Shown here piece after piece: positions 8,509-39,682 of a DNA stretch of 56,659 nt. A model generated the notes under the pieces. That model made no database searches. It worked only from the letters and a program-made list of their open reading frames with translations, and was not told where the DNA came from. This stretch comes from a virus: IMG/VR virus record IMGVR_UViG_3300027648_000002, positions 1 through 56,659 of that record, one strand, 5' to 3'. The stretch's first letter is position 1. Every line of letters begins with the position of its first letter. A program made the position numbers and the translations under genes.

Positions 8509-9317
8509 ATCGGCCTGATTAGCGTGCGGGGCACCTTGACCTTTGTGCCCGCCTTGAGGACCTTCAGGACGTTACTGCCGATCGCACGGTTACCGGTGTT
8601 GGCTTGAGCGAGTTCCCGGGAGACTTTGTTGTCATGGCAGTAATGAGCGCCGATGTCCGAGAGGGTGCGCCACTTGCCGTCAACTGGCACCGTCACGATG
8701 TTGATCTGGCTGCCGACGGCTTCGCGGGCCTTCGCACGGTCGGCAGCCGAGTTCAGGCCGTCATCGAACGCGGGCGCCACGTACTCGGTGAGGGTGACGA
8801 CTGCGGCCTGGCGGACGCGGTAGCCGTTCTCGTCGCGCATCACGCCTGAGCCGAGCGTTTTGTTCCATTCGATGCCGGTGATGACCCAGTACAGCGATTT
8901 GGTCTGGAACTGCAAGGGCACGAGCGGCGTTTCGCCGCGACTGTCGAACGATTCGACCTGGATCAGCGGGCTGTTGCCTTCGCCGGGTGTGCCGACGCCG
9001 CCTTCCTTCTGCGTTTTGAACTTGACGCCGCGGCCGGCCATCCATTCGAGGATCTGGATGTCGGTCTCGACGGCTTTGCTGTCCGCGACGGTTGAGGTGT
9101 CGAACAGGATCGGCACCTGTAGCGTCATCGGTTCGTAGCCTTCGAGGATCGTCAGCGACTTGCGCTGGGGCCGCTTCACGCGGGCGTAGATCGCGTAGCC
9201 TTCTGTCGGCTGGAGCGATTCGCTGTTAGCGAGGACCGCGAATTCGTAGCGTTCGACGGCCTTGCCGTTCGTCAAGAGCCCTTTGAAGCGCACTTCGCGG
9301 GACGTGAGGTTGAGCAT
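8505..9317 (-). CDS. Tail protein with a C-terminal LysM-like domain (Mu gp43 / P2 gpX-like position)
   Basis: C-terminus VTVPVDGKWRTLSDIGAHY...ELAQAN...LKAGTKVKVP fits the LysM pattern. Lies between the tape measure and the hub. Confidence 0.65.
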   Translation of the reverse strand: MLNLTSREVRFKGLLTNGKAVERYEFAVLANSESLQPTEGYAIYARVKRPQRKSLTILEGYEPMTLQVPILFDTSTVADSKAVETDIQILEWMAGRGVKFKTQKEGGVGTPGEGNSPLIQVESFDSRGETPLVPLQFQTKSLYWVITGIEWNKTLGSGVMRDENGYRVRQAAVVTLTEYVAPAFDDGLNSAADRAKAREAVGSQINIVTVPVDGKWRTLSDIGAHYCHDNKVSRELAQANTGNRAIGSNVLKVLKAGTKVKVPRTLIRPI

Positions 9318-9329
9318 TGCGGCCTCCCG

Positions 9330-11069
9330 TCAGGCGCGTGCCTGCCTTTGCAGCGTGTGCAGCGCGACCGATTCCGCGAGATGACGTTGGCTCCACGGGT
9401 CAGAGATCAGGGTTTCTGTGACCTCCCTGGCACCGAGGTGCAGGTGAATGTGCAGGTCTTTGCCGCCCGCGTGCGTGGGCGCGGCGACCCCGTAGGGTGC
9501 GGGCGCCGCTGGCGTGCTGCTGCTCTTGCCGAGTTCACCAATGGTGTTGACGTGTCCGGCGCCGAGCCCGAAGGGCAGGTGCTTCTGAACGTAGTTGTAG
9601 CCTTCGATGACCTTGTTGATCGCCTTGATGACGAGATTAATCCCCGTTTCTACGCTGCCCACAATGGCGTGGAACACGCCGCCGACGAACGAGGCGATAC
9701 CGCCGAAGACCGTTTCGACGCCCTTCTTGATCTTCGTGAAGTTTTTGATGATCTCGACGATCACGAACGCGGGCAGCGAGAGGGTGGCGAGCAGCAGTTT
9801 CCAGTGTTTGATGATGAAGCCGACGACGGTCCCGACGACCAGCTTGATCACCGCGAAGCCTGTCTGCACGATTTCGCGGAACAGCCGTATGTGCACGTAG
9901 GCCTCAGCGAGTATAGCGATCAATGCGGCGACGGCAACGATCACTATGCCGACGGGGTTGGCGTCCATGACCATGTTTAGCAATGCCCAGGCGTCTGACC
10001 AGCTGGAGATCGAGGCCGCGAGCTGCATCACCATGAGCACCTGTGAGCCCGCGGCGAAGATGGCCTCCCCGGCGGCAGCGGCGATCGTCGCCGCACGCAC
10101 GGCTAGGAACACCGCGGCGAAGGCCGCTAGGGCTGGCCACGCGACGCGTATGACGCTCGCGACGACACCGAACGCCGTCTTGAACACGGCGCCGATCTGC
10201 TTGGAGTGGTTCATCACTCCCTGGGCCATGCTCGCCAGGAAGATCCCGACCTTCGTGATCGCGGGCAGCAGCTTGCGGCCGAGGTCCTCCTCCAAGAGGT
10301 CCAGCGTGTTTTTGAAGTTGCTCATCGCGCCCGATGCCGTCTTGCTGTAGGCGGCGGTCGCGTTGCCGTATTTCTTGGCGATGACTTCGTTGATCTGCAG
10401 TGCCGTGGCCTGTTTGTCGAGCAGTTCGGCGTGCTTGAGCAGTTCGGGGTTCTGCTTCTTCTGCGCTTCGGTGAGCTTGTCGACGTAGGTCTTGACGGGC
10501 TGGATGATCCCGAGGTACTGCTGCGCTCTGCCGGCTGTGCCGGCCTGGGCGCGAGCGACGATTTTCAGGGCCGCGCTGTATTCCAAGTGGGCACCGCGGG
10601 CAAGGTTGACAGCCGCCGCATTGAGCTTGACGGCCGTGCTCGCTTTGCCCGTGACCTGGATGAGCTGTGTCAGGCCGCGGGCTTCTTCGATCGGTGAAAA
10701 GCCGCCATGCGTCGCTGAGCGCTCGACGCTTTTGTTGAGCACGTCCATCTGCTGCTTGCCGGCCTGTCCGGTGTTCTTCAGCGCGTTCTGGAGCTGGGCC
10801 TGCTGTTCCTGCCACTGTTTGCCGCCCGAGATGACGTCCTTCAAACCGAACGCCACAGTGCCCAGGCCGAGCGCGCCGACGCCGTAGCCGATCATGTTCT
10901 TCAGGCCACCGAACGCCTTTGACAGCAGGCCGGACTTCTTGCCGGTCTCATCGAGGCTGTCGCCTGTTTTGTCGGAGGACTTTTCGACGTCCTCCATCGC
11001 TTTGTTCGCGCTCTTGCTGTCGCCCGTCAACAGCCACCGGACGATGCGTGTCTCCGCTGAGCCACCCAT
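9330..11069 (-). CDS. Tail tape measure protein
   Basis: 579 aa, with an A/G/Q/K-rich helical N-half and hydrophobic segments. Position after the chaperone genes. Confidence 0.85.
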   Translation of the reverse strand: MGGSAETRIVRWLLTGDSKSANKAMEDVEKSSDKTGDSLDETGKKSGLLSKAFGGLKNMIGYGVGALGLGTVAFGLKDVISGGKQWQEQQAQLQNALKNTGQAGKQQMDVLNKSVERSATHGGFSPIEEARGLTQLIQVTGKASTAVKLNAAAVNLARGAHLEYSAALKIVARAQAGTAGRAQQYLGIIQPVKTYVDKLTEAQKKQNPELLKHAELLDKQATALQINEVIAKKYGNATAAYSKTASGAMSNFKNTLDLLEEDLGRKLLPAITKVGIFLASMAQGVMNHSKQIGAVFKTAFGVVASVIRVAWPALAAFAAVFLAVRAATIAAAAGEAIFAAGSQVLMVMQLAASISSWSDAWALLNMVMDANPVGIVIVAVAALIAILAEAYVHIRLFREIVQTGFAVIKLVVGTVVGFIIKHWKLLLATLSLPAFVIVEIIKNFTKIKKGVETVFGGIASFVGGVFHAIVGSVETGINLVIKAINKVIEGYNYVQKHLPFGLGAGHVNTIGELGKSSSTPAAPAPYGVAAPTHAGGKDLHIHLHLGAREVTETLISDPWSQRHLAESVALHTLQRQARA

Positions 11070-12849: not shown

Positions 12850-14328
12850 CTACGCTCCCACAGATTCAGTTATTGGGACGGACACTATGAACTCGCTGAT
12901 CGAGTTGGCGTACGGCGAGATCCGGACTTTGAGTTCCGCGTTGAGTTCGCCCGCCTGCTCAGTGGCCGGCGTGTTGATCGGTTCACCCACATTTGCCACG
13001 CCGGCGGTCGCTGCCGATTCGCCGAAGAGGGCGTTCTCTTTCCAGTGTTCGGCGATGACGCCCTGGAGTTCGCCCTGGAGCTTTGACAGCAGGATGCCGC
13101 GCCCGTCGATCGTCCGCCCGAAATACTTTTCGAGCAGTTCTTCTGACTGTGCGATGAGGTGCATGCGCTCGCGGCTCGCGGACGCCTGCCAGAAGATGCG
13201 GTCTGTGGCATAGGTCAGCGCGGTGACGAACCCGTACAGGCACGGGATGCCTGCGGGTGTCACATACCAGGAGTTGATGCCGGCTTCGGAGAGTTCGGTC
13301 ATCTGCGCGAGCGTGAACGTGTTCGTGAAGCTCTGCACGAAGTTGCTGATGCCGCCTGCGGGCTGCCCGGGTGGTGACCAGCCTGGCCCGATCGGCGCCT
13401 GGTTGTCGTTGCCCGTCGTGGCGACCTGTGCACACAGCGCGGCGATGACGCCAGACCCGGCGATTTTCCTCGTGGTCGAGGGAGTGAGCCCCGGCACTAT
13501 GCATGAGCTGGAGTGAAAGATCATGTACCCGGCGATGCCGGCCGCGTAGGCTTCTTTGGCGGTGATCAACGTCGCCGGGTTCGACGAGTCCGCGAGGTCG
13601 CAGATCGCGAAGCGGTTGTTTTTCGACGCCTGGCAGTGTTCGCCCATCAACACGTGGATGCCTTTTTTGACGGGTTCTTTTTCGGTGGCGGGTATCCACA
13701 CCTGGCCAGGACCGTAGGTCTTGAGGATACGTTCGAGAGCTTCTTTCACTGCGGCTTCCAGGATTTCCGTCGCGGGGTTGACGCCGCCCGTGAGCGCAGC
13801 CGCCGCAACGACTTTCAGAGCTTCGCCTTTGCCCGTCGCGTATTCGCTGCCTTCTTCCACGACGATGTAGGGCGAGTTGATGCCGAGGAATTCCGAGGCT
13901 TTGGTGCCTTTGATCGTTTCGAGGACTTCGCCGGCTTCGTTCTGGATGACGAGTTCGGTGGCGTTCGCTTCGATCTTGAGCTTGTTGCCGAGCGTGCCGC
14001 GGTACTTGGCTTTGACGATCAGCGTTTTCGCCGCGCCAGCAGTGGCGAGTTCTTTGGAGGCTGCGGTCGCCGCAGATTCTTTGCCGATCCGGGTGACGTA
14101 CACCTGCGCGCCGCCGAGCGCGAAGAACGCCTGGATCTCGTCGTACATCACAGCGCTGGTCGCTGTGCGTTCGCCGAACGTGGCGACGTATGCCGAGAGG
14201 CTCTTGATGAGCGTGGTGGTGAACGGGCCGGAGTCGGTCAGGCCGAGCGGGAAGCCCGTGCCGGTGGAGATGGATGTCCCCGCCGATTGAGCGGTCTCCG
14301 TGGCGACCACTTTGATGCCGAAGGGCAT
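12850..14328 (-). CDS. Tail sheath protein
   Basis: 492 aa. Position and sheath-like N-terminus (MPFGIKVV...GFPLGLT...AQVYVTRIG). Confidence 0.85.
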   Translation of the reverse strand: MPFGIKVVATETAQSAGTSISTGTGFPLGLTDSGPFTTTLIKSLSAYVATFGERTATSAVMYDEIQAFFALGGAQVYVTRIGKESAATAASKELATAGAAKTLIVKAKYRGTLGNKLKIEANATELVIQNEAGEVLETIKGTKASEFLGINSPYIVVEEGSEYATGKGEALKVVAAAALTGGVNPATEILEAAVKEALERILKTYGPGQVWIPATEKEPVKKGIHVLMGEHCQASKNNRFAICDLADSSNPATLITAKEAYAAGIAGYMIFHSSSCIVPGLTPSTTRKIAGSGVIAALCAQVATTGNDNQAPIGPGWSPPGQPAGGISNFVQSFTNTFTLAQMTELSEAGINSWYVTPAGIPCLYGFVTALTYATDRIFWQASASRERMHLIAQSEELLEKYFGRTIDGRGILLSKLQGELQGVIAEHWKENALFGESAATAGVANVGEPINTPATEQAGELNAELKVRISPYANSISEFIVSVPITESVGA

Positions 14329-16004: not shown

Positions 16005-17594
16005 CTACTCGCCCGTGCGCTGGGAGGGATTCGAGCAACCGAGCACTTGAGATGGGCCGCTCTTGCCTGAGCGTTGGGATGGCGACGAGAACCCCGGTAG
16101 ACCAGGGCTCGGCTGGAACGCTTTGTTGGCAGTTGCCGACACCGCGCCCGCACCATGGCCTATCGCGGTCGATGTCCTACGAATCGTCGCTATGGTCGCG
16201 AGCGCCATCCCGGCACCCGAGGTACGAACCGCAATGCTGGCCCTCTTGGTGGCGCTGGCGTTGACGACGCCTGCACCATGCACGACGGCGGTGGCTGACG
16301 GCACCATCCGTCCCGACGCGGTCGCAGAGCCCGCTCCGTGGCCGCTCCCGGTGGCTGTAGCTCGACGGCCGGCCGTAGCCTGGCAGAGACCCGCCGTGTG
16401 GCTTTCGGCGACATTCGACGAGCGTTTGCTGCTGCCTACGGTGGACGCGGATCCGGCGCCGCTGGCGTGAGCTTCGTGTGACGCCAACACGGCATTGCCG
16501 GCTGCCGACGCCCCACCCGCCCCGTGAGCCACCACGGATGCTGTAGCGACACGCGACCCCGACGCGGTCGATCTACCGGTGCCGTGGGCAACAGACGAGG
16601 CCGACGCGATCCTTCCAACGGTCGCGGTCGCCTTCCCCGCACCCGACGTGCTGGCGGTGAGCGTGCCGCGCACCCCGTACGCCTGCAGAGGCAGTTCGCC
16701 CCATTCGATGGATTCCCAGGGAACCTTTTCGATCGTGGTGTAGGTCGAAGCGACCGACCGTTCGCTGTTTGTGCCGCCAGTCGTCTTGATCTTCAGGACC
16801 CCTTCACCGGCAGGGACCAGAAACGCGAGCGACTGAAATTTGCCTGCGCCTTCCCCAATCCGCAGTTCGAGACCGGTTACCGTCACCCAGCCGCCGCCCG
16901 AAGGGGTGCCCAGGTATGTCCCTACGCCCAGCAGGGCTCCGTTGCCGTGCGCGAACAGCCCGATCTGCACCTGCGTGGCCGTAGAGCCTGCGGGCCCGAC
17001 GTACAGGCGCATCATCCTTACGATGCCGCCGCCTTTGATCGGCAAGTATTCGCTGCGATAGATCACGCCCGGCAGCGCTTCGTGTTCGTTTTTGTAGGCT
17101 TCAGCTATCCCTGTCGATGGCCCCGCCAGCAACAGCAGCCCGGTCCCTTCGGCAGCGCAGAGTCCTGCGCCGTGAACCTGGGCGCTTGCCTGGACAGCGA
17201 TACGTGAGCTCGTGGCCTGCGCTTGCCCGGCGCCGTGCACAGCCGCGGCGCCAGCAGCAACCCTGGCGCCTTCGATCCGCGCGAGACCGGCACCAGTGAC
17301 TACCGCCGCAGATGAGGCGGTGCGCTTTGTGCTGGCAGTCGCTACGCCGGCGCCGTGAACGACGGCAGCAGTGGTGGCCACGCGCGACCCTTCAGCGCGA
17401 GCGCTCCCTGCGCCGTGGACTTCACCGGCACCCATCGCTACCCGCGAGGCTGTAGCCGCCCCAACGCCCGCACCGCTCACGGCCGCGAGCGCCACGCCCG
17501 GCGTCGCGGAGCTGCGGATAGGCCCGAACTCCCAGCTCCCGCGCTCATAGGCACGAGGGCGACGGCCCATGATCCCGCGCGCTATACGGGCCAT
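16005..17594 (-). CDS. Virion-module protein with about 15 tandem 20-aa HGAG repeats flanking a globular core
   Basis: Units such as VHGAGSARAEGSRVATTAAV and VHGAGVATASTKRTASSAAV recur N- and C-terminal to a roughly 170-aa beta-rich core. Good GC3. Confidence 0.7.
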   Translation of the reverse strand: MARIARGIMGRRPRAYERGSWEFGPIRSSATPGVALAAVSGAGVGAATASRVAMGAGEVHGAGSARAEGSRVATTAAVVHGAGVATASTKRTASSAAVVTGAGLARIEGARVAAGAAAVHGAGQAQATSSRIAVQASAQVHGAGLCAAEGTGLLLLAGPSTGIAEAYKNEHEALPGVIYRSEYLPIKGGGIVRMMRLYVGPAGSTATQVQIGLFAHGNGALLGVGTYLGTPSGGGWVTVTGLELRIGEGAGKFQSLAFLVPAGEGVLKIKTTGGTNSERSVASTYTTIEKVPWESIEWGELPLQAYGVRGTLTASTSGAGKATATVGRIASASSVAHGTGRSTASGSRVATASVVAHGAGGASAAGNAVLASHEAHASGAGSASTVGSSKRSSNVAESHTAGLCQATAGRRATATGSGHGAGSATASGRMVPSATAVVHGAGVVNASATKRASIAVRTSGAGMALATIATIRRTSTAIGHGAGAVSATANKAFQPSPGLPGFSSPSQRSGKSGPSQVLGCSNPSQRTGE

Positions 17595-20214: not shown

Positions 20215-20571
20215 CTAGATGTAGACGATGGTGAGCGGCGATGAGACCGCCGCGCTTGCGTGGATGATCAGCGACGTGGGGATCGCCGCTGGCAGCGAGT
20301 AGACCGTCGGGTTGGCCGGGCTGATGAGCAGACCCGTGTCTGCTTCGTTGGCGCTCGTGCGTAGCTTGAGTTCGGCTGTGCTCGCCGTGGGTGGGATGAT
20401 CAGGGCCGCCACCGTCCCTGCGGGCACGGTGAAGCGGTTGTCGCCGATGGTGAGCGGGGTGGCGAGCGTCTCGCCGATCACGACCGTGCCCTGGATGGTT
20501 ATCGGTCCGATCTGCCGGGAGCCGGCGGGCTCGGTCGCCGAGAGGCCCGTGATGTTCAGCGTGCCCGCCAT
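20215..20571 (-). CDS. Hypothetical small beta-rich protein
   Basis: 118 aa. ATGA-type junction with the upstream gene. Confidence 0.55.
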   Translation of the reverse strand: MAGTLNITGLSATEPAGSRQIGPITIQGTVVIGETLATPLTIGDNRFTVPAGTVAALIIPPTASTAELKLRTSANEADTGLLISPANPTVYSLPAAIPTSLIIHASAAVSSPLTIVYI

Positions 20572-21368
20572 TAGGCGAGCATGACCAGCGGCGCGATCGT
20601 CTTGCTCGTGACGGTCGTTTCCAGTTTGGCCTGTGCTTTTTCGCCGCCTTCGGATGCGGGCGCGGTCGTGAACGACAGGCCGATCGGGCCTTCACGGGTG
20701 CCCTGGGTGCCTTTCTGCTGAAAGCCCGCTTTGTAGTTCGTCTTGGCTTCTGGGGCCGTGACGGTCCAGCACGTCGGCGCGCCCGAGGTCACGATCGCGA
20801 ACATGACATAGATGAAGCCGTTGGGGCAGTTCGCTTCGGTCGCTTCGACGGTCCCTTTCAGCTTGAACCACGTCATCGTGTGCGCAACCCATGCCGTGCT
20901 GCCGCGGTTCGGTGATTCCTGGATCAGGACAGGCGCGGCGCTCTTGCCTTCATAGAGCGCGGCGACACCCCCCGTGGTGGTCCCGGCGGTTTCCCCGGTG
21001 AACACTCCGACTTCGGAGAAGATGTCGCCGAGTCGCACTGGCACCGCGACGACGTTCTGGACGGTCGTGGCACCGGGCGGCGCTTCGTCTTTCAAGCTCC
21101 CAAGCCCCATGTAGTCGCCGTTGGAGCGGCCCAGCCGGGACGGGAGCGCGACCTGTCTGACGTTGCCGTACAGGACCGCTGTCTCGCCCAGCGCCGAGCT
21201 TTCAGCGCCAGCGGCCGCCGAGACCTCTGAGGACGGCCCGAGGCTCAGGTTCGCGAGCGTGGCTATGACCGTGCTCACGGGGATCGCGAGCACGTTGGCG
21301 ACTTCGGCGACGCCCATCCTGGCGCCATAGGCCAGGTCGAAGATGCGTTCGTTCTGCGTGATAGCCAT
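20571..21368 (-). CDS. Hypothetical virion protein, paralog of 21976..22599
   Basis: Shares VAVPV..GD, (A)PNG(F/Y), PTC..VT and a C-terminal ...PL..L. pattern with the 207-aa protein. Confidence 0.6.
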   Translation of the reverse strand: MAITQNERIFDLAYGARMGVAEVANVLAIPVSTVIATLANLSLGPSSEVSAAAGAESSALGETAVLYGNVRQVALPSRLGRSNGDYMGLGSLKDEAPPGATTVQNVVAVPVRLGDIFSEVGVFTGETAGTTTGGVAALYEGKSAAPVLIQESPNRGSTAWVAHTMTWFKLKGTVEATEANCPNGFIYVMFAIVTSGAPTCWTVTAPEAKTNYKAGFQQKGTQGTREGPIGLSFTTAPASEGGEKAQAKLETTVTSKTIAPLVMLA

Positions 21369-21379
21369 GCTCGCTCCCT

Positions 21380-21676
21380 TCAGATGATCTTTGCGAGGAT
21401 CTCCGAGGACTTGAGGACCACGAGGTCTTCGCCGTTGAACCGGATCTCTGTGCCGCCGTACTTGCTGTAGAGGACTTCGTGCCCGGCGGCGATCTCCGGC
21501 TCGATACGGACGCCTCGGTCTGTGAGGGCGCCGGGGCCTGTCGCGATCACGGTCCCGATCTGTGGCTTCTCGGCCGCGACAGCGGGAAGGATGAGGCCGC
21601 TCGCGCGCTCGAGGTCCTCCGGGGTGGGCCTGATGACTACCCGGTCAGCGAGCGGGCGGAGTTCCTGCTGGTGCAT
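21380..21676 (-). CDS. groES: GroES / Cpn10 co-chaperonin homologue
   Basis: 98 aa with an AGGAGG RBS. LRPLADRVVIRP, ASGLILP, AEKPQIGTVIATGPG and VLYSKYGGTEIRFNGEDLVVLKSSEILAKI are near-canonical actinobacterial GroES motifs. Confidence 0.9.
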   Translation of the reverse strand: MHQQELRPLADRVVIRPTPEDLERASGLILPAVAAEKPQIGTVIATGPGALTDRGVRIEPEIAAGHEVLYSKYGGTEIRFNGEDLVVLKSSEILAKII

Positions 21677-21711
21677 GCGTGGCCTCCTGGCGCATAGGGT
21701 TTCACTGAAAC

Positions 21712-21975
21712 CTATCCCGTCTTGAGGTCCGCCTCGGGATTGCAGGTCGGGCAGCGGTCGGCGAGCTGGTCGTGCTCGCAGCGCGGGCGCGGTGGCCGCC
21801 CGCGACGCGGGCGCGGCGGAACGGCCGTCTCCATCGCCTCGGGCGTCGCTGTCTCCAGCGGCGCGTCGAGCCGGGCAAGCTCCACGTCCATGCAGTGCAC
21901 CATGCTCGCGTCCCCCCGCGCCCGGGCGTTCGCCCGGGCCTCGCGGAAGGACTGGATGCGCTCGGCTCGCCCCAT
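21712..21975 (-). CDS. Hypothetical small protein
   Basis: 87 aa, directly abutting the flanking genes. Confidence 0.45.
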   Translation of the reverse strand: MGRAERIQSFREARANARARGDASMVHCMDVELARLDAPLETATPEAMETAVPPRPRRGRPPRPRCEHDQLADRCPTCNPEADLKTG

Positions 21976-22599
21976 CTACGTGAGGAAGATGAGCGGCACT
22001 TTTTCGAGGCCGACCTGGGCTTTGATCGTCAGGGCGGCTGCGGCGAGCGTCGCGCTTTTCTGTGCGGTGGTCACAGCGAAGCACGTCGGCGTGGTGGCGA
22101 ACCAGTTGTACTGCACTTTCGGTTTCATTTCGAAGCCGACCTGCGTGCCGGGTGTGGCCGCTTCGAGGTTCACGCCGGCGAACAGGTAGCCGTTTGGTGC
22201 GTTCGCGTTGTTGACGTACAGCGGGCTTTCCAGGGTGTAGGCGATGGCGGCGTATTCCGTCAGTTCGGTCGTGCCGCCCGCTTTGCTCTGCCCCAGCAGT
22301 TTCGGTTCGTTGGTGCCCGTGAGGCCCGAGTAGACCGCCGCGAACTGGTTCGTGATGGAGCTGCCGACAGCGGCCTGCAACATCGTGACCTTCGTGATGA
22401 CGTCGCCTTCCTGGACGGGGACCGCGACGAACGTGCCTTCTTTCGTCGTGATCATCGCCGCTGCGAGCAGCGAGTTGAGCCCCACGCCATACAGGTTGGA
22501 GCGTGCGGCGTTCTGCGAGTTGGTGACGTTGCTGGGGCGCCCCAGCAGCTTCCAGATCGGGTCTTCCTGGTGGTAGTGCCCGCCTGCGAGATCGGTCAT
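21976..22599 (-). CDS. Hypothetical virion protein, paralog of 20571..21368
   Basis: 207 aa, the first gene after the capsid-gene terminator. See the paralogy motifs listed for 20571..21368. Confidence 0.6.
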   Translation of the reverse strand: MTDLAGGHYHQEDPIWKLLGRPSNVTNSQNAARSNLYGVGLNSLLAAAMITTKEGTFVAVPVQEGDVITKVTMLQAAVGSSITNQFAAVYSGLTGTNEPKLLGQSKAGGTTELTEYAAIAYTLESPLYVNNANAPNGYLFAGVNLEAATPGTQVGFEMKPKVQYNWFATTPTCFAVTTAQKSATLAAAALTIKAQVGLEKVPLIFLT

Positions 22600-22674: not shown

Positions 22675-24387
22675 TTAGACCGCCGGCGGGTACGCCGTGG
22701 AGGTGTATTTGATCGAGCCGCCGCCGAGCGCCCCAAGGGGAGGTTCGAAGCCCGTCCCGGACGCGATGGCCAACGACTGGCCGTAGCGCATCAGGAACGC
22801 GTAATACTCGAACACCTGGAAGCGGATCTCCAGGGTGCCCGAGAGCACCTCGGAAAGCGCGCGGGTGCGGAGCAGCCCCTCGAACAGCCACGCGTCGTCG
22901 AACTTCGCGGCGAGCGCGATGTCCGCCGTGCCAGCACCGGGGGTGCCGCTGGTGTCCTTGGTCGGGATGTTCGCGTCGATGTAGACGTTGTGCGGCCCGA
23001 ACGGCAACGACCCGACCAGACCCTCTGCGGGCTCTTCGCCGGCGCCGTACAGGGCGCTGACGTTGTATGGCCCGAAGTCCGAACGGTTGGCCACCAGACG
23101 CCCAGACTTGCCTTCGGCACCGTCGAGGCCTGTCCCGAACCAGTACCAGCGGCGCGGGTGCATGACGAGATGAACGTTCTGCACAGCGAAACGCGACGCG
23201 GCGATCTGGGAGATCATCGCGCCCATCACCATGTTGAACGCGGTCACCAGCGGCGCCGCTTCGGTCCAGGTGACGGTGTTCGCCGACCAGTTCGTAGACG
23301 GGTACATGCCCTTGATCAGCCCGGCGTTCAGCGCGGTGGTGTTCGTGCCCGGCGCGGAGATCACCTGCCGGTCGAGGAACCTGTTGAGGTCCGCGATGAG
23401 GTCTTCCATGATCACCTCGTCGAGGTGATACGGGGACTGCTCGAGCAGTTGGATCGCGATGTCGGACTGGCCGGCTGCGGTCTTGACGTTCGCCGTCACC
23501 GCTTCGTCCGTCCAGTCTTTGTCAGCGACCGGGGCTGAGTCCTGGGTCTGGGCCGCGACTTCTGTGGGTTCTTTGATCTTCGGCAGGTTGATGCTGTCGG
23601 TGCCCTCGGGGAGCGGCATGCGACGGCACAGATCGGCCGTGGTGCGGCCCGCACGCAGGTAGGGGATGAACTCCGGCAGCCACAGCGGGGGGACGAAGAA
23701 CCCCCCCTGGCCGTCCAACCTGTTTGGGTTGACTCGCTTCTCTTCCAGCCGGGTGATGCCGAGCTGGCTGCGGACGAATGGGTCGTCGATCAGCCCTCGG
23801 GCACGGATGTTCAGCGGCCCGTGCAGTTCCCGGGTGATCTGGTGCTCGGCCGCGTCCGCCTCAGCACGGGCGCGCCGCTCGGATTCAGCGGCGATCTTCG
23901 GGAACTCGACGCGCATCTCTTTGATGTGGCTTTCGATGCGTTCGTCACCGGAGTTCCCGAGCTGCGCCCGTGCCCCTGGGAGGTCTTTCGCTGCGAGGTC
24001 ACGGAAGAACGAGAAGCCGTTCCCTCGTTCGTAGGTCAGCGGGTTGCTGATGACTTCCAGGCTTGCGGTGCCGCGTGAGGCCTCCTGCGCGTCCTGCGCA
24101 CGGCGTGCCAGCAGCTCCTCCTCGTCGATGCGGCGATCCAGTGCGTGGATCGCCGCGGTGCGCTGGTCGTGTGCGGCACCGAAGGCGCCCTCGTCCAGGT
24201 CGAACTGCGTGCGCTCCTCGTCGGTCACCTCTTTGGTGTCGCGTGCCTCAAACGCCGTGCGCTGCTCGCGGCGCTGAGTGATCGCGACAGCGGCCGCGTC
24301 GATCAGCTCCTTGCGCTGGTCCTGGAGCTGCTCGAGGATCGAACGCTCGTCGGTCGGCGCCTCTTTCTCTTTGGTTTCAGGGGGCAT
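22675..24387 (-). CDS. Major capsid protein, HK97 fold, with a long N-terminal coiled-coil (delta/scaffold-like) region
   Basis: Start at MPPETKEKE with an AGGAGG RBS. RVNPNRLDGQGGFFVPPLW and SDIAIQLLEQSP...ADLNRFLDRQV are Phage_capsid-type motifs. Confidence 0.9.
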   Translation of the reverse strand: MPPETKEKEAPTDERSILEQLQDQRKELIDAAAVAITQRREQRTAFEARDTKEVTDEERTQFDLDEGAFGAAHDQRTAAIHALDRRIDEEELLARRAQDAQEASRGTASLEVISNPLTYERGNGFSFFRDLAAKDLPGARAQLGNSGDERIESHIKEMRVEFPKIAAESERRARAEADAAEHQITRELHGPLNIRARGLIDDPFVRSQLGITRLEEKRVNPNRLDGQGGFFVPPLWLPEFIPYLRAGRTTADLCRRMPLPEGTDSINLPKIKEPTEVAAQTQDSAPVADKDWTDEAVTANVKTAAGQSDIAIQLLEQSPYHLDEVIMEDLIADLNRFLDRQVISAPGTNTTALNAGLIKGMYPSTNWSANTVTWTEAAPLVTAFNMVMGAMISQIAASRFAVQNVHLVMHPRRWYWFGTGLDGAEGKSGRLVANRSDFGPYNVSALYGAGEEPAEGLVGSLPFGPHNVYIDANIPTKDTSGTPGAGTADIALAAKFDDAWLFEGLLRTRALSEVLSGTLEIRFQVFEYYAFLMRYGQSLAIASGTGFEPPLGALGGGSIKYTSTAYPPAV

Positions 24388-24534
24388 TGGCCCCTCCTTT
24401 CGGGAGAACACCCTCGCGGGTGCTGGTGTGGTCTCTCCCGGGCGATACTCGACCTGCTCGGCCGGCACACGCGCGATTGCAAGGGGCGCGTGAAGGCGGC
24501 GAGGGCGGAGCCCAACGCGGGGTCACTGCAAGAT

Positions 24535-25815
24535 TTAGTAGCCCGACTGAACTTCCAGCGCTTTTCCGGTCAAATACGCCAGTCCCGTCGGGTAGCGGAA
24601 CAGCGCGGCGGCGTAACCGTGGAGCATGAAGCGCGCCTGCAGGGTGCCCGACAGGGTCTCCTTGTCCACCATCGTGCTCTTCGCTGTCTCGAACAGCATC
24701 GAGTCGGTGGGGCGGGCGCAGACGATGACGTCCTGGTTGCCGTTGATATTCACCGGGATCGCATCCGACAGGTAGGTCGGCCAGCCCAGGATCGGCGGTG
24801 CCACGGCAGGGCGCGTGTCGTCGAACGTGTACGGGACGGGCGGCAGCGCCTGGTGGCCCGGCACCGCGAGAGGAAGTTTCTCTTCGTCCTCTTCCGAGCC
24901 AATGTACGCCCAGCGGGCCGTCCGCATCAGCCAGACCTCGGGCGACACTTTGCGGGCGTCGCCGAGCTGTCCTGCGACCTTCCCGAGTTCCTTGAAGATT
25001 TCATAGCCTTTGGTGCCGGTCGCGGTTACTACCGACACGCCGCCGGCGCCTGTCGTGAGGTTCAAGATGCCTGCGATCTGCTGGTGGGATTTGCCGGTGC
25101 CGTTGAACAGCGCCGCCTCTAGAGCTTCGTCGTAGTCCTCCAGCAGGTCCTTGAGGATCGAGTGGTCCAGGTGCGCTCCGGCCGGGGACTGTTCGAGTAG
25201 TTGCATCGAACAGCCGGAGTTGCCGCTGAACGTCTCCACCCACGATTCGGCTGCGGCGTCGGTGAAGTCCTGGTCGGGGACCGGCGAGACATCCTGCGTC
25301 GCTTCAGCAGCGGTGCCGGGCGCCAGGATGCGCGGCAGCTTGATTTCCGAGACTTTGGCTGTCAGCGGGAAGGTGGGGATCAGGCTCGCGAGGACACGCT
25401 TGGCGCGCGGCGCCGTGGCGAAGGCCTCGTTGGCCCACAGCGGCGGCGAGAAGTAGCCGCCTTGGCCATCGATGCGGCTCGGGTTCACGCGCGTCTCAAG
25501 GCCCTCGGGGGCGCTGCGGTACACACGCTCCAGAAACCGCGGCATCTCGATGTCCATCTCGGCTGCGTGGCGTTGCAGGCGCCCGCTGGCCTCCTGGTCG
25601 CCGTTGATCTCGGCGAGCGCTCGGTCACGGAAGTAGCTGGTCGGGGTGTGCCGTTCGTAGGTCAGGGGTTCGCGGGTGGTGCGCACCTCGGGCCGGCGCA
25701 CGCGCTCTTCGGCGAGCACAACGTCGCGCAGCTCCGGCGGGATCGCCTCCCATGTCGCGCGGACCTCGTCGATCGCCGCGCGTGCCTGCTCCGCCGTGCG
25801 GGTCTCGTCAGTCAT
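24535..25815 (-). CDS. Second HK97-fold capsid protein, paralog of 22675..24387
   Basis: PLTYERHTPTSYFRD, RVNPSRIDGQGGYFSPPLW and CSMQLLEQSP...LEDYDEALEAALF align with capsid gene 1. Confidence 0.85.
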   Translation of the reverse strand: MTDETRTAEQARAAIDEVRATWEAIPPELRDVVLAEERVRRPEVRTTREPLTYERHTPTSYFRDRALAEINGDQEASGRLQRHAAEMDIEMPRFLERVYRSAPEGLETRVNPSRIDGQGGYFSPPLWANEAFATAPRAKRVLASLIPTFPLTAKVSEIKLPRILAPGTAAEATQDVSPVPDQDFTDAAAESWVETFSGNSGCSMQLLEQSPAGAHLDHSILKDLLEDYDEALEAALFNGTGKSHQQIAGILNLTTGAGGVSVVTATGTKGYEIFKELGKVAGQLGDARKVSPEVWLMRTARWAYIGSEEDEEKLPLAVPGHQALPPVPYTFDDTRPAVAPPILGWPTYLSDAIPVNINGNQDVIVCARPTDSMLFETAKSTMVDKETLSGTLQARFMLHGYAAALFRYPTGLAYLTGKALEVQSGY

Positions 25816-27314
25816 CGTGCGCCCCTCAACGCGAGCAGCTCAAGCTCCTGCTCAGCGCGCGTGGTGAGATCCGGCACACGTGCCCGCGCTGGCTCAGGCT
25901 CAGGCTCGGGCTTGTCGGGGTTCTCGACGCCGAGCACCTTCGCGAGTTCGGGGAGTGCCTGGTCGAGCTGGTCGTCGGCTTTGGCGATCCGGTCCAGCAC
26001 GGCGGTCAACAGCGTTTCGCGGGCGGTGGAGATCGGTTTGCCGACGCGCAGCTCGACTTCGCCATCGGCGGAGCGGATGCTTGTCGTCTTGCCTGTGGAG
26101 GGGCTTGCACCGAACGTGACGGCGCTGACGTCCCCGCCGTGCAAGGTGACGCTGCGGACTTTGCGGTCGGTCCAGTCCTCGTTCCACGCGTCGTCGGTGC
26201 AGCGGAACGCGAAGCTCATTTCGTCGACCAGGCCGCGTTCCATCTTCAGCTTCAACCGTTGTGCGTCGGGGTCCTCTGTGTCGAACTTGGCGTCGACCTT
26301 CAGGCCGCGCTCGGTCTCCTCGAGCATGAGGGTGCCGGGGATCTGCGAGTCCGGGCGCTCGGTGCGCGCGAGCGGCAGGCCTTCGTGTTCGACGCGGAAC
26401 ACCACGTCGGGGTTCTCCTTCAGAGTGCGCCTGAAGGCCCCGCGTTCGATCGTCTCTGTGAACCCGCCGACGCTGTAGGGCACGTTCGTCAGCGACGCGT
26501 AGCCCTCGAAGTGCATCATGCCGTCCTCGTCTACGCCACGGAACTCGCACTCGCGGACCGAGAACTGACGGTGCTCCAGGCTCTTGCCGTTACGCAGGCT
26601 TTCCGCACGTTGGCGGCGGCGCTCCAGCGCCCGCTGGCCGCTGCGGGAGTCCTTCGCGATTTCGCCGCTGCCGTCACAGTCAGGGCATTCCGTTGAGCCG
26701 CCCTTGACTTTGCCGGAGCCTTCGCAGGTCGGGCATTCTTCCATGTCCTCGGTGCTGTTTTCGACGGCGCGCTGGTTCGCCTCATACGTCGTGACGCGGC
26801 GCACCTTCTCGGGGTCGCCGAGGGTCACGCCGTCATCGTCGGCGATCGTGTACGTCACCTGCCACAGGTCGCCTTCGTATTCGTAGACGGCCCACTGTTC
26901 GGTCATGTCCGTGACGTAGGGGCCGTAGATCGCTTCGCCCTTCTTCTTTTTCGGCAGCGAGTCTGAGATGGCCGATTCGACGAGCTGGCGGCGGTCGTTG
27001 AAGGTTTCGCGTTCCTCAAGCGTTGACCAGACGCCCTTGGTTTCTTTCAGAGACCCGTCCGAGTTCCAGTTGTCGGGGATCAGGCTGGACAGTTTCAGCG
27101 CCTTGGCGCGCTTGATGACGTGAGCACGGATTGAGTCGTGGTCGGCGTTGCCGCGCCCGACGGCTTTGATCGCTTTCTTGAGGTCGTCTTCGTCGGCGAT
27201 CGGGTATGACCCGTCGGCCATCGCTTCGCCGTTCTTGGCCATTTCATCGCGGTCGGCCTGTTTGTACTTCGCGCGCCACTCGCGCGTCAGCGAGCGCTCA
27301 ATCGTCAAGGACAT
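25812..27314 (-). CDS. Prohead maturation protease (HK97 / S78 family) with a long N-terminal extension carrying a DnaJ-type zinc finger
   Basis: C-half: FEGYASLTNVPYS...GAFRRTL...VVFRVEHEG...DEMSFAF. N-half: YPIADEDDLKKAIKAVGRG and CPTCEGSGKVKGGSTECPDCDGSG. Confidence 0.9.
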   Translation of the reverse strand: MSLTIERSLTREWRAKYKQADRDEMAKNGEAMADGSYPIADEDDLKKAIKAVGRGNADHDSIRAHVIKRAKALKLSSLIPDNWNSDGSLKETKGVWSTLEERETFNDRRQLVESAISDSLPKKKKGEAIYGPYVTDMTEQWAVYEYEGDLWQVTYTIADDDGVTLGDPEKVRRVTTYEANQRAVENSTEDMEECPTCEGSGKVKGGSTECPDCDGSGEIAKDSRSGQRALERRRQRAESLRNGKSLEHRQFSVRECEFRGVDEDGMMHFEGYASLTNVPYSVGGFTETIERGAFRRTLKENPDVVFRVEHEGLPLARTERPDSQIPGTLMLEETERGLKVDAKFDTEDPDAQRLKLKMERGLVDEMSFAFRCTDDAWNEDWTDRKVRSVTLHGGDVSAVTFGASPSTGKTTSIRSADGEVELRVGKPISTARETLLTAVLDRIAKADDQLDQALPELAKVLGVENPDKPEPEPEPARARVPDLTTRAEQELELLALRGAR

Positions 27315-27323: not shown

Positions 27324-28643
27324 TTACTTGCCGATCATCGCCGGGTCGCCCTTGCCGTTCGGCGGGACGGGTTCCTCCGTCGGCTCTGGTGCGTACTTCG
27401 CTTCGATGGCCTCTTCCGCTTCGGCCATGACTTTTTCGAGCAGCGTCGTGTTGATCGGCGAATTCAGTTTGTCGCCGTCCTGCTCGGGCGGCAGGTCGAA
27501 CAGGGCGCGTGCATCGTTCGGTGTGAAGAACCCGCCCAGGGTGCCCAGCGAGCCGGCCTGCGCGCGCTCTAGCGTGTCGCCTCGCAGCCGGTGGCTCATG
27601 TCGATCGAGACGTACTCGCCGGGCGGGTGGACGGCGGTCATCGCGGCTTCGTAGCGGCCCGTGTAGTCCTGCAACGTGTTTTTCGTGAAGCCCAGCTCCA
27701 TCTGCTCGATGCCGCGTCCCCAGGCCGTCGTCTTTTCGGTCATGCCGAGCATGTGCGGCGGGCAGCGGAAGATCGTCCCGGCGATTTCTTCGCCGGAGAA
27801 CCGCATCGATTCGAGGAACTGCGAGTCCTGCGGGGTGATCGAGATCGGCTTGACTTCGGTGTCGCCTGTCACGATCGCCGGGAGGTGCGCCTGGCCGAGG
27901 CCCTGGTGGGCGGCCATGAACGACCGGACCATTTTCTTCGTCTGGTCGGGGCTCAGGTCGCCCTTGACCTGGATCACCAGCGACGGGTTAGCGCTGTTGG
28001 AGAAGTAGCGGGCGCCGTAGGTGCTCTGCGCGAGCGACTTGCTCAGCGACAAGCGCAATGACTGGATCGGGTTGACGCCCTGAAGCATCCCCGGCATCGT
28101 CAACAGCCGCACGTGAAAGACGTCTTTGAGCGGGACTTTCTTGTTGAAGAACTGGTATTCCAGTTCGCCGTTCTGTAGCCGTCGGACGGTTGCGTTGTCG
28201 GCGGGGATCGGCTTGATCTGCGTCGGGTACAGCGTCGCTTTGTCGCGGCTGATGACCTGCCCGAAGAACTCGCCGCGCAACGCCAGCGACGCGACGAACT
28301 GCACCATCCAGTCGAACAGGCTTATCTCGCAGTACGGTTCCGTCAACAGCGGCCCGGGCTTGAGTTCTTTGGCCTTGCGCAGCACCTTGCTGTTCAGCAG
28401 CAGCAGCGGCGAGTTCGCGATCGACGAGGACAGCAGGTTCGAGCAGCCATACACCGCCGCGATCTGCAACGCGGACTCCTGGCTGACGGCGATCCCGGCA
28501 GCCGACCCGTAGCCGCCGGCTTCTGCGTTGGTTGGCGGTGTGGAGTTGCCCCATTCAGATCCAGGCTGTGCCGCTCGGGCGTCCTGTGCGCCGTCGCTGC
28601 GGAGGTCAAGCGCGTTCGCGACCGCTTTCGTGAGCAGCGACAT
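27324..28643 (-). CDS. Portal protein (HK97-type Phage_portal)
   Basis: Start at MSLLTKAV. Family-typical region ...GVNPIQSLRLSLSKSLAQSTYGARYFSNSANPS...AHLPAIVTGD...QFLESMRFSGEEIA. Confidence 0.9.
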   Translation of the reverse strand: MSLLTKAVANALDLRSDGAQDARAAQPGSEWGNSTPPTNAEAGGYGSAAGIAVSQESALQIAAVYGCSNLLSSSIANSPLLLLNSKVLRKAKELKPGPLLTEPYCEISLFDWMVQFVASLALRGEFFGQVISRDKATLYPTQIKPIPADNATVRRLQNGELEYQFFNKKVPLKDVFHVRLLTMPGMLQGVNPIQSLRLSLSKSLAQSTYGARYFSNSANPSLVIQVKGDLSPDQTKKMVRSFMAAHQGLGQAHLPAIVTGDTEVKPISITPQDSQFLESMRFSGEEIAGTIFRCPPHMLGMTEKTTAWGRGIEQMELGFTKNTLQDYTGRYEAAMTAVHPPGEYVSIDMSHRLRGDTLERAQAGSLGTLGGFFTPNDARALFDLPPEQDGDKLNSPINTTLLEKVMAEAEEAIEAKYAPEPTEEPVPPNGKGDPAMIGK

Positions 28644-28656
28644 GCGGCAGCCCCTC

Positions 28657-28905
28657 TCAGACGGTCTTGGCGGCCCGGCGCGTCCTACGTTCCGCCTTTC
28701 GCTCCGCGCGCCACAGCGTGAGCTTGACGCGCACATCGTGCACGGCGGCGAGCGTCAGCTTGATCGGGTTCAGCCCCTCGACCGCGAGCGCGAGCAGCCC
28801 GAGCACAACGCTCGCGCCGATCAGCGCCCAGCCGCGCCCCGCCAGTTCGTAGACGCCGGCGACGAACACGCTGCCGGACAGCCCGTAGAGCGCGTTGGCG
28901 AACAT
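28657..28905 (-). CDS. Small membrane protein (2 predicted TM segments)
   Basis: Hydrophobic stretches LYGLSGSVFVAGVY and GWALIGASVVLGLLALAV, with a basic tail. Confidence 0.5.
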   Translation of the reverse strand: MFANALYGLSGSVFVAGVYELAGRGWALIGASVVLGLLALAVEGLNPIKLTLAAVHDVRVKLTLWRAERKAERRTRRAAKTV

Positions 28906-29969: not shown

Positions 29970-30137
29970 GTGACGCCCGAGCAGCGCAAGGCGCTAATCA
30001 AGCGGATCTACCGCGAAGGTGAGCAGCCGAACTGCTGGCATGTGTTCGTGGGCGACAAGCAGTGGGACGTGATAGGGAATGCCGACGACGCCCGAGAGCA
30101 AGCGCGGTTGGAGAGGGCGCTCCAGGAAGAAGGCTAG
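29970..30137 (+). CDS. Small hypothetical protein (55 aa, below the ORF-track cutoff)
   Basis: GTG at 29970. VTPEQRKALIKRIYREGEQPNCWHVFVGDKQWDVIGNADDAREQARLERALQEEG. Its TAG overlaps the TerL stop in a convergent arrangement. Confidence 0.4.
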   Translation: MTPEQRKALIKRIYREGEQPNCWHVFVGDKQWDVIGNADDAREQARLERALQEEG

Positions 30138-31678
30138 GCGTAGGGGTCTGAGAGGTCCTCTCCGGCCTCGAGCATTTCCCGGTAGACCTCGTTCATGTCG
30201 ATGATCTGAGAGTCGGCGGGTGTGGGGAGGCTGCGCAGGCCCCACAGCGCCAGGGTGACGGCCACGAGCACGCTGATGTCGATGCTGCTGTTGATTCTGC
30301 TCCAGAGCCATGCCTCGCCGAGCGGTCGCTTGACGGCGCCTTTGATGGCGTCTGTCAGGTCGGGCTCGCCGAGGTGACGCAGCGCGGTCTGTTTGACGAG
30401 GTCGAAGATCGCCGCGCACGCTTGGGCGTGCTCTTTGGCGCTGATCGGCGTGAACTCGATGTGCAGCGCTTCGAGCTGCGCGGGCACGGGGCCGGCGAGC
30501 GTCTCGTCGAGGACCGTGCCGATGACCTTGTGGTCCTCTTTGAGCTTTTCGACACGTTGGGCGACCCAGCTCGTGCTGCGCTTGTGTTCGATGATCTCCA
30601 GGTGGGGCAGGCCGTCGGCCCGGTAGCCCGCGACGCATATCGCGCTGAACGAGCGGTCCGGGGTCGTGTCGCAGCCAAGGCAGACCGGACCCACGATCTG
30701 GGAGTCCGCGTCGATGCACTTCGCCCATTGGTCGGGGTCAATCACGGGCGCCACGTTTCCGTCGGTTCTCGGCCATGCTCCGACTCCCAGCCGCTGCACG
30801 GCGAACGTGCGACGGTCCATCGAGCGCTTCTCAAGCGCGATGTGCTCCGGGTCGATGCGCTTGCCCAGGCCGGGGTTCGCCAGCGCCCACATGCGCGGGT
30901 CGCCCGCGACCTTGTCCGGGACACCGTCGGGATCGTCAAACGGCAGCGACCACTCCATGTAGGCCAGGGCCGGGTCGTCGCCTTTGATGCCGCGCTCGCG
31001 GACCCTGGCGAACACGATCCCGTCATGCGACGGGTTCTCCTCGTCGACTGCCGAGCCGGTGTACCAGACCTGGATGTTCGGCATGGCCGACAAGGTCGGC
31101 AGCAGCGCGCCGTGCATCGCCATCGAGATGATCATGGCCTCGTCGAAGATCAGGCAGTCGATCGAGAAGCCCAGGCCGCCGCTGCCGGTGCGGGTGCGGA
31201 ATTGGATGGTCGGCGCGACCCCCGTTTTGCGGTTGCGCAGCAGCGTGATCGACTCGTTGCCGTGGCCGCGCAGAATTTTGTCTACACGCCGGTCAAGCTC
31301 CGGGTCGTTTTCGATCAGCGTCGCTACCCGCAGGAAGTGCTGCGCTGAGGTGTCGAACTGGTGTGCGGTGTGGACGATCAGGCTCTCTTCGAGCAGGAAC
31401 AGTCCGGTGATCTCCCGTGCCTCTAGGATCGAGCCCTTGCCGTTCTGGCGCGAGAGCATCTCGCCGACCTCGCGGGCCGCCCAGCGGCCGTCGGCGCGTT
31501 CGCCGAGCGCGTGCCCCAGCGAGAACTGCTGCCAGTCGTCGAGGTGCAGCCCCGCTTTGGCGGTGAGGTCGACCGCTTCTTCACCGGTCGATGTCGCGTA
31601 GGCCGGGTAGGTGCAGATCCTAGGTCGCTGCGCGCCGACGAGCGGTCCGGCGTTTGGCGCGACGATCGTTGAGCTCAT
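30134..31678 (-). CDS. Terminase large subunit
   Basis: 514 aa. SRQNGKGS (Walker A-like), CLIFDEA (Walker B) and a nuclease-half pattern. Upstream of the portal. Confidence 0.9.
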   Translation of the reverse strand: MSSTIVAPNAGPLVGAQRPRICTYPAYATSTGEEAVDLTAKAGLHLDDWQQFSLGHALGERADGRWAAREVGEMLSRQNGKGSILEAREITGLFLLEESLIVHTAHQFDTSAQHFLRVATLIENDPELDRRVDKILRGHGNESITLLRNRKTGVAPTIQFRTRTGSGGLGFSIDCLIFDEAMIISMAMHGALLPTLSAMPNIQVWYTGSAVDEENPSHDGIVFARVRERGIKGDDPALAYMEWSLPFDDPDGVPDKVAGDPRMWALANPGLGKRIDPEHIALEKRSMDRRTFAVQRLGVGAWPRTDGNVAPVIDPDQWAKCIDADSQIVGPVCLGCDTTPDRSFSAICVAGYRADGLPHLEIIEHKRSTSWVAQRVEKLKEDHKVIGTVLDETLAGPVPAQLEALHIEFTPISAKEHAQACAAIFDLVKQTALRHLGEPDLTDAIKGAVKRPLGEAWLWSRINSSIDISVLVAVTLALWGLRSLPTPADSQIIDMNEVYREMLEAGEDLSDPYA

Positions 31679-38670: not shown

Positions 38671-38776
38671 TGCGACGCCTATTTGCAGGGCTTTTTACCA
38701 TAAATGGACCAACGACAGCGCGCTTCGCAGGCCCCGCGAAACTAATGGACCAGCTAGCGGAGTTGCCGGCAAGCGC

Positions 38777-39118
38777 TCACCGGAGCACCTCGAACTCGAC
38801 GCGCCAGACCCGCGCGAAGACATCAAAGCAGCCGTTGATCTCCGACCATGCGGCGATGAATGCCGAGACGCTCGTGAAGCCCTCTCGCTTGGCCTCTGCG
38901 CTCGACATTTTGCCGAGAATCATTCTCGAGCACAGGACGACGCACGCGGTGCCGACGCGCGGCTTGCCGCGCCCCGGCTGTACCGAGAACTCTTTGCCCG
39001 GCACGTAGATGCACCGGTCATGCCACCACGGCGACTTCGGGTTGTCCGAGCACAGGCGACGCGTGACCGTCTTCTCGCCAGCCATCACCTTCGCTGCCAG
39101 CTCGGCGCGGAAGATCAT
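38777..39118 (-). CDS. ASCH (PUA-like) domain protein
   Basis: MIFRAELAAKVMAGEKTVTRR...GFTSVSAFIAAWSEI fits the ASCH pattern. Confidence 0.65.
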   Translation of the reverse strand: MIFRAELAAKVMAGEKTVTRRLCSDNPKSPWWHDRCIYVPGKEFSVQPGRGKPRVGTACVVLCSRMILGKMSSAEAKREGFTSVSAFIAAWSEINGCFDVFARVWRVEFEVLR

Positions 39119-39673: not shown

Positions 39674-39682
39674 GCCGCACGC

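Follow-up and report, generated by a model that had tools for sequence, protein, structure and literature searches.

A GroES gene in a phage late operon

GroEL and GroES were discovered via phage morphogenesis, and we describe here a GroES gene that is carried by a phage. The gene lies in a 56,659-nucleotide stretch of viral DNA (IMG/VR record IMGVR_UViG_3300027648_000002, positions 1 to 56,659; hereafter the window) and had been picked out in an earlier reading made before any database search (the sequence-only reading). Its coding sequence starts with an ATG at 21676-21674 and ends with a TGA, and we assigned the following features to it.

21380-21676, minus strand: GroES/Cpn10 coding sequence, 98 amino acids (aa), from the open reading frame (ORF), PF00166, PHROG 3188, the AlphaFold2 (AF2) model and Foldseek
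21683-21688, minus strand: ribosome-binding site (RBS) AGGAGG, 6 nt 5' of the GroES ATG, read from the sequence
21572-21628, minus strand: mobile loop, residues 17-35 (PTPEDLERASGLILPAVAA), from translation, alignment and low predicted local distance difference test score (pLDDT)
21587-21598, minus strand: docking glycine plus hydrophobic tripeptide, G27-L28-I29-L30, from translation
21497-21538, minus strand: roof hairpin region, residues 47-60 (GPGALTDRGVRIEP), from translation and alignment

The ORF, its RBS and every motif quoted in the sequence-only reading (LRPLADRVVIRP, ASGLILP, EKPQIGTVIATGPG and YSKYGGTEIRFNGEDLVVL in the 98-aa protein) were present as described. The Pfam Cpn10 profile (PF00166) matched end to end, over positions 2-93 of 93, with 89.9 bits against a cut-off of 21.1 (E 1.1e-25), and PHROG 3188, 'co-chaperonin GroES', matched with an E value of 7e-19. 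We aligned the protein with its 29 best database homologues (30 sequences in all) and found that it retains 14 of 14 invariant columns; among the near-invariant positions, it differs at only two, position 24 (R for T) and position 66 (H for D). The docking segment G27-L28-I29-L30 is intact and aligns with G24-I25-V26-L27 of the Escherichia coli protein, with G27 invariant among the 30 sequences; a glycine followed by three hydrophobic residues is the mobile-loop criterion used in the viral co-chaperonin survey of Marine et al. 2017 (PMC5649160). The roof hairpin is also present, and differs in length by at most 1-2 residues from that of the 29 homologues and of cellular GroES; the mobile loop likewise has the length found in cellular GroES.

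The AF2 model has a pLDDT of 83.7, with its low-confidence stretch confined to the mobile loop, as is expected because this loop is flexible. In Foldseek comparisons, the model superposed on bacterial GroES structures from Mycobacterium tuberculosis, Thermus, Hydrogenophilus and E. coli (1P3H, 1WNR, 4V4O, 5OPX and 1AON) with template-modeling (TM) scores of 0.76-0.84; the predicted fold is the GroES beta-barrel and, as modeled, is indistinguishable from that of functional GroES. Judged by its sequence and its predicted structure, the phage protein is a full-length, bona fide but divergent Cpn10/GroES, which appears to be functional and to have an intact docking loop. Neither of the findings that the sequence-only reading named as refuting its claim, the lack of a significant Cpn10 profile match or a missing or disrupted mobile-loop region, was observed.

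The window ends in the same 99 bp with which it begins (1-99 and 56561-56659), indicating a circularly closed assembly of ∼56,560 bp. The GroES gene is the only ORF in the window matched by the Cpn10 hidden Markov model (HMM), and a tblastn search of the closed genome with a GroEL found no GroEL gene (best E 0.026), in agreement with what the sequence-only reading had seen among the ORFs. Because the assembly is circularly closed, this absence of GroEL applies to the entire genome.

A lineage-specific insertion behind two capsid genes

The genome has a GC content of 65.4% and almost every gene is on the minus strand. The late genes run in the order terminase, portal, S78 prohead protease, capsid 1 and capsid 2, followed by ten unannotated genes that include GroES, and then by head-tail adaptor, tail sheath, tape measure and baseplate J genes. 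Since it has a tail sheath gene, the phage is contractile-tailed. Matches of its terminase and capsid proteins to cultured phages were almost exclusively to actinobacteriophages (40% identity to Rhodococcus phage REQ1, ∼30% to Mycobacterium phages), and the window is the closed genome of an uncultivated, high-GC, actinobacteriophage-related soil phage. The features of the late block on which the following comparisons depend are these.

30134-31678, minus strand: terminase large subunit
27324-28736, minus strand: portal protein
25812-27314, minus strand: prohead serine protease (S78), with an N-terminal extension carrying a DnaJ-type CXXCXGXG motif
24535-25815, minus strand: capsid gene 1, HK97 family, 426 aa (PF05065)
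22675-24468, minus strand: capsid gene 2, HK97 family, 597 aa from the first start, 570 aa by other gene callers (PF05065)
21976-22599, minus strand: g207, conserved, without assigned function; comes after capsid gene 2 in all relatives
21712-21975, minus strand: g87, a small conserved gene of 87 aa with a C-terminal CEH..C..C motif; upstream edge of the insertion site
21677-21711, minus strand: spacer of 35 nt from the g87 stop to the GroES start, at the upstream edge of the insertion; holds a palindrome and AGGAGG
20571-21368, minus strand: g265, a g207 paralogue with an N-terminal extension; downstream edge of the insertion
20215-20571, minus strand: g118, conserved, downstream of the variable slot
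12850-14328, minus strand: tail sheath, at the far end of the minus-strand late block that carries GroES

Two capsid genes do lie upstream of GroES, as had been claimed, and they are paralogues of each other (31% identity, E 2e-45). The further claim that GroES sits between two paralogous genes held in so far as g207 and g265 flank it and are weak paralogues (29% identity over 124 aa, E 9e-10), but g87, which intervenes between g207 and GroES, had been overlooked. The g207/g265 family had no match in Pfam, PHROGs or NCBIfam, a nine-sequence profile of it found nothing among the Protein Data Bank (PDB) sequences at E <= 1, and its single-sequence AF2 model was unusable (pLDDT 32.7). An N-terminal extension (MAITQNERIFDLAYGA...) is common to g265 and its orthologue in the closest relative and is absent from g207, and one member of the family alignment gave weak, uncertain helix-turn-helix matches in Pfam (E 0.003-0.09).

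The GroES gene is spaced from its neighbors by 35 nt upstream and 11 nt downstream. Between 19.8 and 25 kb, neither strand showed a sigma-70-like promoter, and the coding (minus) strand showed no terminator-like site, in a scan that covers actinobacterial promoter types poorly. The gene has a GC content of 66%, a third-position GC content (GC3) of 0.86 and a codon usage matching those of the adjacent phage genes.

Homologues of capsid 2 are abundant in metagenomes (303 matches at 40-80% identity), defining a large family of uncultivated phages. We examined seven relatives (L014/15, L016, L017/18, L019, L020, L021 and L023/24), the L017 contig being 122 kb long. The protease, both capsid genes and g207 are kept in 7/7, and g87 and g118 in all six whose contigs reach beyond g207; g87 orthologues are 38-67% identical in every relative that covers the site. 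None of the seven carries a Cpn10 gene by tblastn (E <= 10) or by HMM search with all filters off, under which the window, used as the positive control, scored 124 bits. The gene is thus present in one of the eight lineages examined, and the same insertion, which the sequence-only reading had proposed to look for in related phages, was in none of the seven relatives. Several relatives contain ORFs of similar size (97 aa in the same slot of L020, 98 aa in L014, 97 aa in L021 and 99 aa in L024), which we considered as cryptic Cpn10 genes and rejected, there being no HMM or tblastn signal even with filters off; the 99-aa gene of L024 is the g87 orthologue.

The closest relative, L024 (a JGI 3300031754 contig of 105,858 bp), is 74% identical to the window in the protease, 80% in capsid 2 and 66% in the adaptor. 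Its gene order is g207, g87, g265, g118, with only 12 nt between g87 and g265, and the RBS and start of g265 are conserved (AAGGAGACACGA-ATGGCGATCACGCAGAACGAACG in L024, AGGGAGCGAGC-ATGGCTATCACGCAGAACGAACG in the window). We mapped the junction by pairwise DNA alignment of the two and found that they differ between g87 and g265 by the cassette only, that is, by the 35-nt spacer and the 297-nt GroES ORF. The only candidate insertion scars at the GroES junctions were short repeats at chance level. In L014 and L020, the same slot holds unrelated ORFs of 81 aa and 97 aa, respectively. GroES is therefore an insertion of moron type, one gene long and specific to this lineage, placed between g87 and g265.

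Some further features of this region were observed. A perfect 13-bp palindrome (GTTTCAGTGAAAC), unique in the genome, lies at 21699-21711, just 5' of the GroES RBS; it is too short to form a hairpin loop and could either bind a protein or be left over from the junction. The N-terminal extension of the S78 protease (∼250 aa) holds, at residues ∼186-228, a zinc-finger motif, CPTCEGSGKV...CPDCDGSGE, which scores below threshold in Pfam (DnaJ_CXXCXGXG, 23.2 versus 32.7 bits; Anti-TRAP, 26 versus 32 bits); among the proteases of the relatives, a weak Anti-TRAP match occurs in L020, and faint or weak CHP02642 matches in L020 and L023/24. This extension is a second chaperone-like element of the head module. 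In L024, the capsid-2 orthologue is in two pieces (8478-9137 and 9983-11002) that lie ∼850 bp apart with a reverse-strand 150-aa ORF between them, possibly because of an intron or mobile insertion, and ∼5 kb of extra genes separate capsid 1 from capsid 2. A conserved gene of 97-99 aa (…VWTGSV.AIA…), which is absent from the window and is not a Cpn10, follows capsid 1 in L014 (9577-9873), L021 (4056-4349) and L024 (3144-3443).

Divergence and comparison with known co-chaperonins

The sequence-only reading had described the protein as actinobacterial in type, recently derived from a host and useful for tracing that host. Among 5.8 billion protein clusters, the sole close match was the phage's own protein, and the next best was 57% identical. 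The three closest homologues are all cellular, each with groEL next to it. One of them, P0003 (57% identity, on a contig of 63-68% GC), adjoins a GroEL that is 84-87% identical to the GroEL of Solirubrobacterales/Solirubrobacteraceae metagenome-assembled genomes and so, on the strength of that GroEL, comes from an actinobacterium like the Solirubrobacterales, and the best match among solved structures was M. tuberculosis GroES (85 bits versus 40 bits for E. coli). However, P0005, which is equally close (55-57%), lies on a contig of 47% GC, and Chloroflexota and Clostridia-type GroES follow at 46-53%, as do other phyla at 50-53%. An affinity to Actinomycetota is therefore plausible from these identities and is too weak for host tracing; at 57% identity or less to anything known, the gene is a poor host marker.

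Recent derivation from a host did not survive the comparison. Compared with any third GroES, the protein's nearest cellular relatives score 11-12 identity points higher than the phage protein does (24-26 of 26 comparisons). Because it is at most 57% identical to other proteins, scores below the NCBIfam equivalog cut-offs for GroES, has the longest branch in its tree (scores and branch length are given below) and is phage-like in composition, we take it not to be a fresh host copy; it would have evolved fast in phages or derive from an unsampled donor. In the neighbor-joining (NJ) tree, the phage protein pairs with P0009, a Cpn10 from an unrelated phage fragment. We rejected this pairing as probable long-branch attraction, P0009 being 64.5% identical to a cellular GroES and 53% identical to that of the window. 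Other searches added little: Megablast of 18-26 kb against GenBank phages gave no match, IMG/VR returned three distant loci only for a GroES query (38-40% identity) and zero for a capsid-1 query, and a scan of GTDB genomes for GroES, using exact-peptide patterns that were overly strict, returned only one irrelevant Cytophagales locus.

Set beside cellular GroES (M. tuberculosis Cpn10, 1HX5 and 1P3H), the phage protein shares family, length and fold (TM 0.76 and 43% identity to 1P3H), as well as the mobile-loop motif, the roof hairpin and the invariant residues. The two differ in that the phage gene has no adjacent groEL, whereas the nearest cellular homologues all do, and in that cellular relatives have DTAK after the tripeptide where the phage has AVAA, in addition to the changed R24 and H66.

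Two co-chaperonins that phages supply to host GroEL, gp31 of T4 and CocO of RB49, are specialized for the capsid protein gp23, and the same job is proposed for the window's protein: while heads are being assembled, it would give host GroEL a lid of phage origin. T4, too, has a pair of paralogous capsid proteins (gp23 and gp24), which the tandem paralogous HK97 capsid genes conserved in L014, L016, L017, L019, L020, L021 and L024 recall. Gp31 is essential for T4, whereas the GroES gene is absent from the window's relatives. Nor does the phage protein belong to the gp31 family: gp31 (1G31) ranked 34th among its structural matches, behind all cellular GroES, with a TM score of 0.61 and 15% identity. 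Gp31 has a longer mobile loop and no roof hairpin, giving a larger cage, according to Bakkes et al. 2005 as that work is cited in PMC5649160. The window's protein has neither specialization, its loop being of ordinary length and its roof hairpin present, which speaks against a capsid-specific role of the gp31 type.

Phage GroES genes without a phage GroEL are already well documented, soil viromes included. A GroES or gp31 gene occurs in 165 of 2178 GenBank phage genomes, most of them without GroEL, and in virioplankton, GroES-only contigs dominate the viral chaperonin genes, often with a head gene close to GroES (PMC5649160); GroES is also named in a 2026 preprint as one of the auxiliary viral genes enriched in soil (bioRxiv 10.64898/2026.09.23.753886). 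The documented examples (PHROG 3188; Bacillus 0305phi8-36 ORF041; Flavobacterium vB_FspM_immuto; Vibrio phages D71-D93; the virioplankton of Marine et al. 2017) resemble the present case in being true Cpn10 proteins of tailed phages, with a presumed host GroEL partner, a conserved mobile-loop motif and, often, a head protein gene near by. The window's protein is nevertheless only 31-37% identical to those of the Flavobacterium, Bacillus 0305phi8-36 and Vibrio phages, and host range and ecosystem differ (high-GC soil, actinobacteriophage-related). Unlike in other GroES-only phages, the limits of the insertion are fixed here to the exact nucleotide by comparison with a sister phage. The insertion also resembles phage morons and auxiliary viral genes, being a single extra gene, with its own RBS and spacer, between genes that are adjacent in the sister phage; unlike classical lambda-type morons, it showed no promoter or terminator of its own in our scan, with its poor coverage of actinobacterial promoter types.

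What is new here is a true Cpn10 in an actinobacteriophage-related soil phage, tblastn of 50,697 GenBank phage records having found none in actinobacteriophages at E <= 1e-5. The pair of sister phages with the same head genes, one with and one without the insertion, is an unusually clean natural experiment and makes it possible to test whether chaperonin capacity is what limits virion assembly in high-GC Gram-positive hosts. Neither a new mechanism nor a new kind of gene is revealed.

Proposed function and rival explanations

We consider it likely, given the sequence and the model, that the phage protein is a functional co-chaperonin acting on host GroEL, which is the most economical mechanism because the Cpn10 is intact, lies in the head/late operon and has no phage GroEL to work with. 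One lineage of uncultivated, high-GC, contractile-tailed soil phages would have acquired GroES as a one-gene, moron-type insertion; the gene would be translated from its own strong AGGAGG site on a late transcript common with the capsid and virion genes; the product would assemble into the usual heptameric lid and would dock on host GroEL through G27-L28-I29-L30 of its mobile loop; and host chaperonin capacity would thereby be raised or retuned while virion proteins need folding in bulk. The two capsid paralogues are the obvious candidate clients. The narrower claim that the protein serves the capsid proteins specifically is one that we would sooner doubt than accept. Thus, of the proposal in the sequence-only reading that the co-chaperonin reprograms host GroEL for folding capsid or virion proteins, the co-chaperonin part gained support from the genuine Cpn10, the late operon and the genome without GroEL, whereas a capsid-specific need was weakened by the seven relatives without Cpn10 and by the missing gp31 specializations.

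Several observations weigh against the proposed function. All NCBIfam equivalog cut-offs for GroES were missed (the best, NF001530, at 108.5 versus 136), and the subfamily model NF001531 was barely reached (96.1 versus a cut-off of 96). In the NJ tree, the phage protein has the longest terminal branch (0.254 versus a median of 0.091). The segment following the hydrophobic tripeptide reads PAVAAEKP where its relatives have PDTAKEKP, and this altered segment or the long branch could reflect a changed or weakened interaction with GroEL. All contigs that carry the gene are 100% identical in DNA, leaving zero variation for an estimate of the ratio of nonsynonymous to synonymous substitution rates (dN/dS). 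Finally, because seven relatives with the same capsid genes do without Cpn10, the two-capsid head does not require GroES; the gene is accessory and is not demanded by the capsid design.

The main rival is that the protein is a generic booster, which tops up or replaces host GroES (for example, under host transcription shut-off, or under heat or drought stress in soil), helps protein folding at large and has no special tie to the capsid; we regard this as unlikely, though it deserves to be taken seriously. It would explain why the loop and roof have lengths usual for cellular GroES and do not enlarge the cage as in gp31, and why relatives with the same capsid genes manage without Cpn10, and it fits the placement of GroES among soil-enriched auxiliary viral genes in the CheckAMG preprint (bioRxiv 10.64898/2026.09.23.753886). 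A second phage bears on it too. An unrelated phage fragment, L022 (a Logan SRR26275510 contig of 4450 bp, 64.9% GC), carries the Cpn10 P0009 (the cellular GroES to which it is 64.5% identical being that of L009) at 2846-3130, with a 340-aa unannotated gene on one side and a tail assembly chaperone and tape measure gene immediately downstream; by sequence, this Cpn10 appears to have been captured independently into a structural module, and its neighbors are tail rather than capsid genes, as a generic booster would allow. On the other side, the position of the window's gene in the late structural operon, after the head genes, ties its dosage to virion protein synthesis, and its divergence (<=57% identity, longest branch) exceeds what a simple spare copy would need. 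Actinomycetota usually have two GroEL paralogues, and a bolder reading is that the protein is a fast-evolving, specialized co-chaperonin that steers one of these to two HK97-type capsid proteins. We hold this to be distinctly unlikely; if it were true, the repeated Cpn10 captures (in the window and in L022) would mark an unrecognized chaperonin dependence of actinobacteriophage virion assembly.

Action on host GroEL was also weighed against readings in which the gene does no chaperonin work at all. It could be a neutral passenger, a captured cellular gene in a permissive slot of the late operon that contributes nothing to the phage, as the variable content of the slot (the unrelated 81-aa and 97-aa ORFs of L014 and L020) and the presence of the gene in 1/8 lineages might suggest. 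Yet the ORF is intact, keeps the docking tripeptide and all invariant residues although it has diverged by ∼43% from the nearest relative, has a consensus RBS and is fully ameliorated to the phage in composition, and compact phage genomes rarely retain useless genes; moreover, because the unrelated L022 captured a Cpn10 independently, recurrent selection is a better account than accident. A neutral passenger is thus very unlikely. Still less probable, in our judgment extremely so, is a repurposed Cpn10 fold that acts as a GroEL antagonist or decoy (in host takeover or anti-defense) or as a virion or assembly component. The location among unannotated putative virion genes, the long branch and the replacement of D/T/K by A/V/A beside the tripeptide are compatible with such a role, for which retention of the whole set of GroES-invariant residues, including the interface strands LRPLADR and EILA and the flexible loop motif, would be unexpected; there is no extra domain, and the fold matches functional GroES. 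The chance that the gene is an artifact, a bacterial groES brought into a phage contig by chimeric assembly or host contamination, is next to nil. Nothing was found in favor of it; the DNA of the gene and its flanks is 100% identical in contigs of no fewer than three independent samples (ENA ERZ27256038, JGI 3300001593 and JGI 3300001084), the junctions are tight and in operon register with a conserved downstream RBS, the composition is the phage's own, and cellular genes are absent nearby.

Beyond the GroES locus, the search for tRNAs and Rfam families found none in the window, and three other features were recorded. The 529-aa protein encoded at 16005-17594 (minus strand) has many degenerate repeats of ∼17-18 aa with 'HGAG' or 'GAG' around a central nonrepetitive domain; it has no Pfam or PHROG match, Tandem Repeats Finder found nothing in its DNA, and it could be a head fiber or decoration protein. 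The early/replication region encodes an HNH endonuclease, a PD-(D/E)XK nuclease and an AP2-domain protein (50639-51199, 44647-45765, 47015-47635; all minus strand), the AP2-domain match falling below threshold. On the plus strand, opposite to most genes, lies a serine recombinase of 226 aa (37990-38670; Resolvase N-terminal domain, E 5e-40), overlapped in another frame by a 408-aa ORF (38567-39793) with no Pfam match; the recombinase may be a small resolvase/invertase or a frameshifted large serine integrase.

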